Positions 12,941 to 14,128 of a stretch of 64,000 nt of DNA are shown piece by piece. The translations under genes were made by a program, and so were the position numbers. The stretch is from positions 72,850,001 to 72,914,000 of the forward strand of contig OX597831.1 of assembly GCA_951406725.2 (NCBI GenBank), in the 5' to 3' direction. This DNA is from Octopus vulgaris (Eukaryota). Below the pieces are notes generated by a model. The model was not told the DNA's origin. It worked only from the letters and a program-made list of their open reading frames with translations, and did not search any database. Position 1 is the first letter of the stretch, and the number at the start of each line of letters is the position of its first letter.

Positions 12941-13390
12941 TTATTATTATTATTATTATTATTTATTTTGTCCATCATATACAAGTACATGTGTCTTCAT
13001 CCATCATTATCCTATTCATTTTACTCAATTATAGAAACATTGAAGCATGCCTGACTATTTCAGAGTGTATTGAGCTTATTTGGAGTGTGGCTTTTAGCCC
13101 ACCGTGCGTGCGTGTGTGTGTGTGTAGGCTAACACAAGACCCACATTAAACTCTTCACTTGTATCACGATTGAACCAAGAATTTAACTATGGTCTGTACT
13201 TAACACTAAGTATTGCCTGCCACTCTTTGGGTCATCTAGATACCAATATCTTTTATACATATATATATATATATCATATTAGATATATATATATATATAT
13301 ATATCATATTAGAGGAAAAAATAAAAACTAAGGCAGAACAAGTATCTCAAGTCATTTAGGATAATTTAATTAGGGTAAGGTGAGTTTGCA

Positions 13391-13466
13391 GTCTTACAGC
13401 TGTTTCTGGGATAACCTGACTGGTTGGTTAGCATGTCCATACACTGGGTATTCCATCATCAGAGAC
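13391..13466 (-). ncRNA. type I hammerhead ribozyme motif (minus strand)
   Basis: Minus strand reads GUCU-CUGAUGA-UGGAAUACC..GGUUAUCCCA-GAAA-C-AGCU-GUA-AGAC: full core, stem I GUCU/AGAC, stem II, minimal stem III with palindromic AGCU loop, GUA cleavage triplet. Confidence 0.75.
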
Positions 13467-13529
13467 AAAGTGTGTATGTATGAAAGTTCTTGACAGGGAA
13501 AGAACTTGACTTTCATACGTACTCACTTT

Positions 13530-13605
13530 GTCTCTGATGATGGAATACCCAGTGCACAGACATGCTAACCAACCAGTCAGGTTATCCCAGAAACAGCTGT
13601 AAGGC
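13530..13605 (+). ncRNA. type I hammerhead ribozyme motif (plus strand)
   Basis: GUCU-CUGAUGA(13534-13540)-stem II-GAAA(13590-13593)-CAGCU-GUA(13599-13601)-AGGC; stem I has one G-U wobble. Confidence 0.72.
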
Positions 13606-13852
13606 TTCAAATTCACCTTACCCAAATCCAATTATCCTAAATGACTTGAGATACTTGTTCTGCCTTGGCTTTTGTTGTTCTCTTTCCTCTAATATATACC
13701 TGCTAACACAGAAGCCTAATACAGATCCCGAGCTCCAGCCTCAGCTGTGAACTTGGAACCTAACAGATGACGAGTTATAGCACTTACCCAGCGTACCTAT
13801 TCGTTTAGATCACCAATGAACTAAACCCCTCCTATCCTTTATATATATATAT

Positions 13853-14128
13853 GAAGGCACGATGGCCCAGTGGTTAGGGCAGCGGACTCGCGGTCATAGG
13901 ATCGCGGTTTCGATTCCCAGAAAACACCTAAAAGCTCCACGAGGCTCCAGCAGGGCGTGGTGATCCCTGCTGTACTCTTTCATCACTCTTTCTCCCACTC
14001 TTTCTTCTGTTGACCTGCTCGCTTAGCCAGCGGGTTGGCGTCATTCGAAGGCTAAAACAATGCGAACGCATTGTGACCAGCGATGTGTAACAACATCTGA
14101 TGGTCTGGTCGGTCACGTGATCACGTGA
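13853..14128 (+). mobile_element. tRNA-derived SINE, family D
   Basis: A box tggcccagtgg, B box gtttcgattcc; unique body ending ggtcacgtgatcacgtga; flanked by (TA)n on both sides. Confidence 0.75.

Follow-up and report, generated by a model that had tools for sequence, protein, structure and literature searches.

A decayed head-to-head pair of Hydra-type Penelope-like element 3' ends with a predicted hammerhead ribozyme on each strand in Octopus vulgaris

Introduction

Viroid-like RNAs carry ribozymes in both polarities and are rod-like. A locus in the genome of Octopus vulgaris would give an RNA of similar shape: a long hairpin with one hammerhead-like motif on each strand. Is it a replicating, viroid-like unit, or the remnant of something more familiar? 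It lies in a 64,000-nucleotide stretch of contig OX597831.1 (assembly GCA_951406725.2, positions 72,850,001 to 72,914,000, forward strand), here called the window, and window coordinates are used throughout. A first-pass annotation described a non-autonomous ambisense ribozyme unit and named an inverted pair of Penelope pseudo-LTRs (pLTRs) as its most parsimonious origin. The analysis below points with high confidence to a decayed insertion of a Hydra-type Penelope-like element (PLE), in which two short 3' ends are joined head to head within a (TA)n microsatellite, probably as the product of one retrotransposition event. Each arm has a predicted hammerhead because the hammerhead belongs to the pLTR of the element.

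Structure of the foldback

The two inverted arms (13306-13486 and 13510-13695) are 89% identical across 186 nt, with 15 mismatches and one 5-nt gap, and the predicted fold of 13300-13700 has an energy of -287 kcal/mol (z = -33), a stability equalled by none of 100 shuffled sequences. Arm alignment and fold energy thus bear out the foldback as first described at 13306..13695. The start at 13306 holds and the end does not. The left arm (13306..13502, minus strand) is an inverted, tail-less, 5'-truncated pLTR copy, whereas the right arm (13502..13695, plus strand), likewise 5'-truncated, is followed on its side only by a conserved tail of about 145 nt (13696..13840, plus strand), so the insertion reaches about 13840 and is asymmetric. 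It has no open reading frame left.

The inner arm ends meet near 13502 without a TA spacer. At this inversion junction (13487..13509) the left arm includes about 10 nt more of the element body, and a small insertion is present in the right arm; a 26-nt pattern spanning the junction, searched at up to two mismatches, matched the genome once, at the window itself. In contigs from 4 of 24 sequencing runs, none of the pieces listed crosses the junction, and the depth at this point is a total over all copies of the family. The outer end of the left arm adjoins the left (TA)n target microsatellite (13257..13305) and the tail ends at the right (TA)n flank (13841..13855); because both flanks are TA runs, a target-site duplication is unreadable.

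The left TA run stands at the end of an isolated tail of another, related pLTR family (13126-13258, plus strand; 466 first-look candidates in the genome), and PLE remnants have thus accumulated at a single microsatellite. At locus L176 a hammerhead-like core lies upstream of this tail. On the other side, an extremely abundant interspersed repeat, likely a SINE, adjoins the right TA flank (13856-14110; summed contig depth in the millions). Farther away lie two LINE-like reverse transcriptase (RT) ORF fragments (56418-58645; open frames of 437 and 283 aa), after which comes a TA/CA-rich microsatellite of about 3 kb (58.7-61.9 kb).

Hammerhead motifs in the arms

A strict type I hammerhead descriptor gave exactly two matches in the 64-kb window and none in 60 dinucleotide-resampled windows. 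The motif of the right arm (13530..13605, plus strand) has C3 at 13534, GAAAC at 13590-13594 and a predicted cut 3' of A17 at 13601, and that of the left arm (13391..13466, minus strand) has C3 at 13462 and a predicted cut 3' of A17 at 13395. H17 lies at these same two sites, and one type I hammerhead per strand was correctly called at the outset. Both motifs contain the core boxes, stems I and II, a palindromic stem III region and an NUH site, as expected of minimal type I hammerheads. Stem I has 4 bp in each arm (GUCU/AGGC right, GUCU/AGAC left), and the stem III/loop is the palindrome ACAGCUGU. The Rfam hammerhead models matched neither arm, whether at the gathering score or with E <= 5, and below threshold Rfam returned only hairpin-driven miRNA matches.

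Self-cleavage by these motifs is a prediction from structure models. The distal part of stem II is damaged in both arms, and the hammerhead-constrained energies are -3.0 and -6.1 kcal/mol, as against -13.8 (L030) and -7.3 kcal/mol (L079) in other copies. The free minimum-energy folds of the isolated arms are not hammerheads. In the predicted rod, the pairing probability is 1.0 at each of the 10 core positions checked, as anticipated by the suggestion that a read-through transcript sequesters the ribozyme.

The first-pass annotation had stem II closing with an unusual U-A pair. Hammerheads could be parsed in 80 of 111 candidate copies of the family (at most 5 mismatches per anchor), and these show instead an extra pair of opposed bases next to a canonical G10.1-C11.1. 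After A9, 44 copies have C, 32 have T and four have another base, the next two bases are GG in 53 and AG in 22, which is a signature of CpG decay, and the facing base is A in 74. With C opposite A in most copies and with CpG decay, the T after A9 probably derives from a C that never paired normally with the A, and the U-A closure is likely an age-related artefact next to a regular G-C pair. A similar derivation of the AGCU loop from a CpG-decayed GGCC was considered and dropped for weak support (AGCT in 56/80, GGCT in three and GGCC in one).

The core is intact in 46 of the 80 parsed copies and damaged in the other 34, so that it is unremarkable for the window to have two intact ones. Departures from the majority base amount to 5.9% at core positions (55/936), as against 8.4% (508/6025) in the conserved part of the 3' arm, a small difference for which search bias may account. 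Sister subfamilies keep the same core despite shorter stem II hairpins, which supports a hammerhead function in the source elements. Unrelated compact type I hammerhead motifs also occur close to family copies at L125:538 and L124:7281 (both plus strand); in the one at L125:538, C and A likewise flank the G-C base of stem II.

Close published counterparts are the dual minimal hammerheads of Schistosoma mansoni PLEs, which lie 100-700 bp apart on opposite strands and have an extra base after A9 and a conserved G10.1-C11.1; monomers did not cleave and dimers cleaved at a low level in the experiments reported there (Cervera and de la Pena, 2014; PMC4209133). Dimer cleavage by hammerheads is also summarised in PMC6765202. 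The window motifs agree with those of S. mansoni in being minimal type I on opposite strands, in the base after A9, in G10.1-C11.1 and in the palindromic stem III, and differ in that their C3 positions are only 72 nt apart and that an additional A also stands before G12.

The parent element

Longer copies of the family carry a GIY-YIG-type endonuclease upstream of the arm, past about 1 kb of non-coding sequence (the 3' UTR). Its motifs are CxCX5C, YIG, CxLC and CKH, and the linker, CxxC and CxH that characterise Hydra elements are present in L123, L124, L125 and L161. Endonuclease, 3' UTR, arm and tail are contiguous in the single loci L161, L169, L125 and L124, and in L170 the series runs up to the arm. 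Farther upstream, RT motifs (TMGS and YRDD in L122 and L123, with FLDV in L122) are contiguous with the same endonuclease and 3' UTR. Within the subfamily to which the window copy belongs, none of the loci examined has RT, endonuclease and arm contiguous, and RT is therefore linked to the arm by way of overlapping loci. A sister-subfamily locus, L164, does hold DKT, TMG, YRDD, FLDV, endonuclease, hammerhead and tail in one piece; its length from DKT to the end of the tail is about 3.65 kb, which exceeds the tendency of the Hydra clade to stay below 3 kb (a tendency and not a strict criterion). RWK and DKT occur together in L162, L163 and L168, and DKT in L164, all of them sister-subfamily loci. 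In L162 the pLTR passes through the tail directly into an RWK-coding frame, and through this sister-subfamily locus the family shows a trait of EN+ PLEs, in which the tail is the stretch lying past the upstream pLTR on the ORF side.

All family copies examined are broken. The RT and endonuclease fragments gave no Pfam match above cut-offs, and GIY-YIG appeared only at E 0.012 in the database relative P0002; the nearest database relative of an RT fragment is from Octopus bimaculoides (64% identity). A long Asn/Thr-rich insert lies between RT and endonuclease in the family ORF (L121:3714-5114, minus strand; also L122 and L123). A separate, apparently younger Hydra-type family with shared motifs has open frames of up to 644 aa (L166:2626-3760, plus strand; L167:4280-5421, minus strand).

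Judged by these sequence motifs, the arm represents the 3' end, or pLTR, of a Hydra-type PLE of high copy number, RWK and DKT being contributed by sister subfamilies only. The pLTR origin named in the first-pass annotation is thereby upheld and tied to a parent with RT and endonuclease. A type I hammerhead within a non-coding stretch of about 350 nt could also suggest a non-LTR retrozyme, a tandem hammerhead repeat that makes circular RNA, and an origin of retrozymes from pLTRs has been reported (bioRxiv 2026.07.22.740005). Retrozymes, as described in that preprint and in PMC7229834, are direct tandem repeats from which successive hammerheads release monomers. The metazoan non-LTR retrozymes of PMC7229834 share the type I hammerhead with the window, but the window has no direct tandem unit, its motifs being inverted copies with one on each strand, and the body of the family is a protein-coding PLE with a 3' UTR of about 1 kb; we regard a retrozyme as extremely improbable here.

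Copies and pair layout in the genome

Searches of the 2.8-Gb assembly gave, as rough totals of first-look candidates of which 40 were scored in each search, 2183 for the tail to the right of the arm, 1475 for the foldback and 153 for a 331-nt piece located about 0.7-1.05 kb upstream of the hammerhead. This fall-off in the upstream direction is the 5'-truncation profile of a retroelement. The median pairwise identity among 112 arm pieces is 81%, from which the family is old.

Inverted pairs were found at 17 of 30 tail-selected loci, the window counted in, and no inverted partner was present within the roughly 1.5 kb examined at the other 13. All 33 arrangements recorded are divergent (head to head) and none is convergent (tail to tail), although the 33 are partly redundant rather than independent loci and one pair is an arm matched with itself; L041 and L052 are apparent duplicates of each other. 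Both arms were detected in 32 pairs among 36 inverted loci, and exactly one tail is present in 31 of these, none in one and two in none; since about half of the pairs came from the tail search, the absence of two-tailed pairs is the informative part. Detected arms are separated by gaps of about 0 to 3483 nt, the break in many pairs lies within or past the hammerhead, and the inner breakpoints differ from pair to pair. Breakpoints at -690 in the survey of tail loci were discarded, as they come from another repeat inside the reference copy. A pattern count of cores on both strands in the same survey was likewise set aside, since across 3 kb such patterns match by chance. Most of the arm and tail ends listed run into TA or CA repeats. 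Near 1650-1800 in L173 and L174, inversion junctions fall inside the hammerhead and form tiny palindromes with only the 3' core half on each strand, and L025:1250-1684 contains short direct repeats of the arm 3' end and part of the tail within an inverted pair.

These layouts bear on two further explanations. Long inverted arms between TA runs would suit insertion at TA of a DNA transposon of the MITE or foldback kind, bounded by long terminal inverted repeats; this has next to no probability, given ends made asymmetric by the tail, the 13 of 30 tail-selected loci that lack an inverted partner within the interval examined, and 5'-truncated copies that lead to RT and endonuclease coding sequence. 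The other is the mobile ambisense ribozyme unit, replicating as a rod-like circular RNA, for which the two intact cores and the very stable rod can be cited. We consider it highly improbable. The two motifs are duplicates of a single sequence rather than distinct ribozymes, and cores damaged in 34 of 80 copies leave the two intact ones unremarkable. The junction is unique, the inner ends vary among pairs and the tail is one-sided. Each strand holds one cut site and one sense ribozyme, so that, reasoning from sequence, neither a unit-length monomer nor a unit-length circle could be released. The first-pass annotation had offered a one-off inverted pLTR pair as the opposite of a mobile unit, expecting in that case a unique junction and, elsewhere, single arms only. 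The junction is indeed unique in the genome; the copies are not only single arms, since inverted pairs are common, each with its own breakpoints. The window foldback is an ordinary head-to-head PLE remnant of known layout.

Subfamily mosaic of the arms

Family copies split into two subfamilies, A and B. Typing at two or more segments succeeded for 70 of 89 anchored copies and gave a consistent result in 68 of them; the remaining two, which are discordant, are the arms in the window. The segments of the right arm are typed A (upstream), B (stem II), A (end) and A (tail), and those of the left arm A, B and B. In the right arm the subfamily-B patch occupies the 3' strand of stem II (13568..13582, plus strand) between subfamily-A sequence. 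A rare three-base variant of the patch is common to both arms and otherwise occurs at two places only, both of them B-type loci. The exact combination of A-type upstream sequence with B-type stem II was matched by the right arm only, and B with B by 31 sites in the genome; the searches of the genome located the A-to-B switch common to both arms at no other site. At the left end, the assignment to B comes mainly from a single 5-nt gap within a T-rich run.

Such a mosaic is a poor fit to simple copying of one ordinary RNA. Two PLE insertions, one of subfamily A and one of B, might have landed head to head in the same TA tract and later have been partly homogenised by conversion within the palindrome. 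The outer ends do differ in type (right end and tail A, left end B), and both arms have the rare variant tract otherwise confined to two B-type loci. Set against this are inner ends without a TA spacer, a single tail as in 31 of 32 pairs, a need for conversion in two opposite directions, and a left-end B call that depends mostly on the 5-nt gap. Other short-gap pairs, moreover, have none or one common rare variant and no raised arm-to-arm identity, so that general homogenisation of arms was not seen in them. Taken together, these observations make two insertions improbable.

With a single insertion preferred, the simplest reading of the sequences would be that one chimeric template was copied twice and that a slippage deletion then occurred at the left end. 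A one-off chimeric donor locus may alternatively have been the source of the mosaic arms. As the A-to-B switch is common to both arms and absent elsewhere, a more specific scenario is also proposed, which we hold to be speculative and rather unlikely: the PLE RT would have jumped between two element RNAs and then copied its own chimeric cDNA, giving the inverted arm.

Discussion

The Hydra clade comprises C-terminal EN+ PLEs with a CxCX5C linker, CxxC, CxH, RWK and DKT motifs, no CCHH motif, a (TA)n target and a length generally below 3 kb, and an inverted 5'-truncated copy, with the tail often at one end only, is described among them (Craig et al., 2021; PMC8557442). The window family shares with the clade CxCX5C, CxxC and CxH, the (TA)n target, a hammerhead in the pLTR and, in sister subfamilies, RWK and DKT; extra opposed bases flank stem II in many entries of the published Hydra motif list, as they do here. 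The supplement of the same paper includes Penelope-13_HM, for which it records a 5'-truncated copy in inverted orientation and the hammerhead on either strand, and one octopus family among its entries, Hydra-1_Obim. The hammerhead given for Hydra-1_Obim differs in sequence from that of the window family, which is therefore another family, though it may already be catalogued. Compared with the clade as described in that paper, the window family has a longer stem II region (about 48 nt between the core halves), a 3' UTR of about 1 kb, an Asn/Thr-rich ORF insert, and a tail of about 145 nt as against the published 30-40 nt.

Head-to-head junctions in PLEs of Adineta vaga were ascribed to self-priming (Arkhipova et al., 2013; PMC3846280). 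As in the window, insertions of the Pen2a type consist of inverted head-to-head pLTRs with a tail on one and a palindrome at the junction, and Adineta PLEs also have an Asn/Thr-rich insert between RT and endonuclease; the Pen2a tail is 31 nt long and its target-site duplications are readable, whereas in the window any duplication is masked by the TA target, and the ORF is gone. Opposite-strand hammerheads in head-to-head PLE pairs are an already published layout (Cervera and de la Pena, 2014; Penelope-13_HM). For PLE insertion, nicking of AT-rich DNA and internal initiation by RT, which accounts for the tail, have been reported, with a hammerhead that is protein-assisted and dispensable for insertion in vitro (Frangieh et al., 2024; PMC11167929).

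From this literature we infer the following course for the window insertion. The GIY-YIG endonuclease of the element would have nicked AT-rich DNA, and RT would have started internally on the RNA, at the end of the tail, and halted about 30 nt upstream of the hammerhead. A second copy, without a tail, would then have been laid down in reverse through self-priming or a second priming event, and substitutions would have accumulated since. A transcript crossing the insertion should fold into a rod that blocks the ribozyme, and one starting at the centre should contain a single hammerhead that is weak, depends on dimer formation and has a damaged stem II.

The locus itself carries little weight, being one of many dead head-to-head PLE ends in the genome. 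It does offer a caution for ribozyme screens: PLE inversion yields hammerheads on both strands automatically, so their presence in a genomic hairpin is no sign of viroid-like replication. If the template jump and self-copying did take place, the mosaic foldback would be direct evidence for fold-back self-priming in PLE inversion. Should the chimeric patch common to the two arms turn up in other pairs as well, the way in which PLE inversions form could be tested from genome sequence alone.
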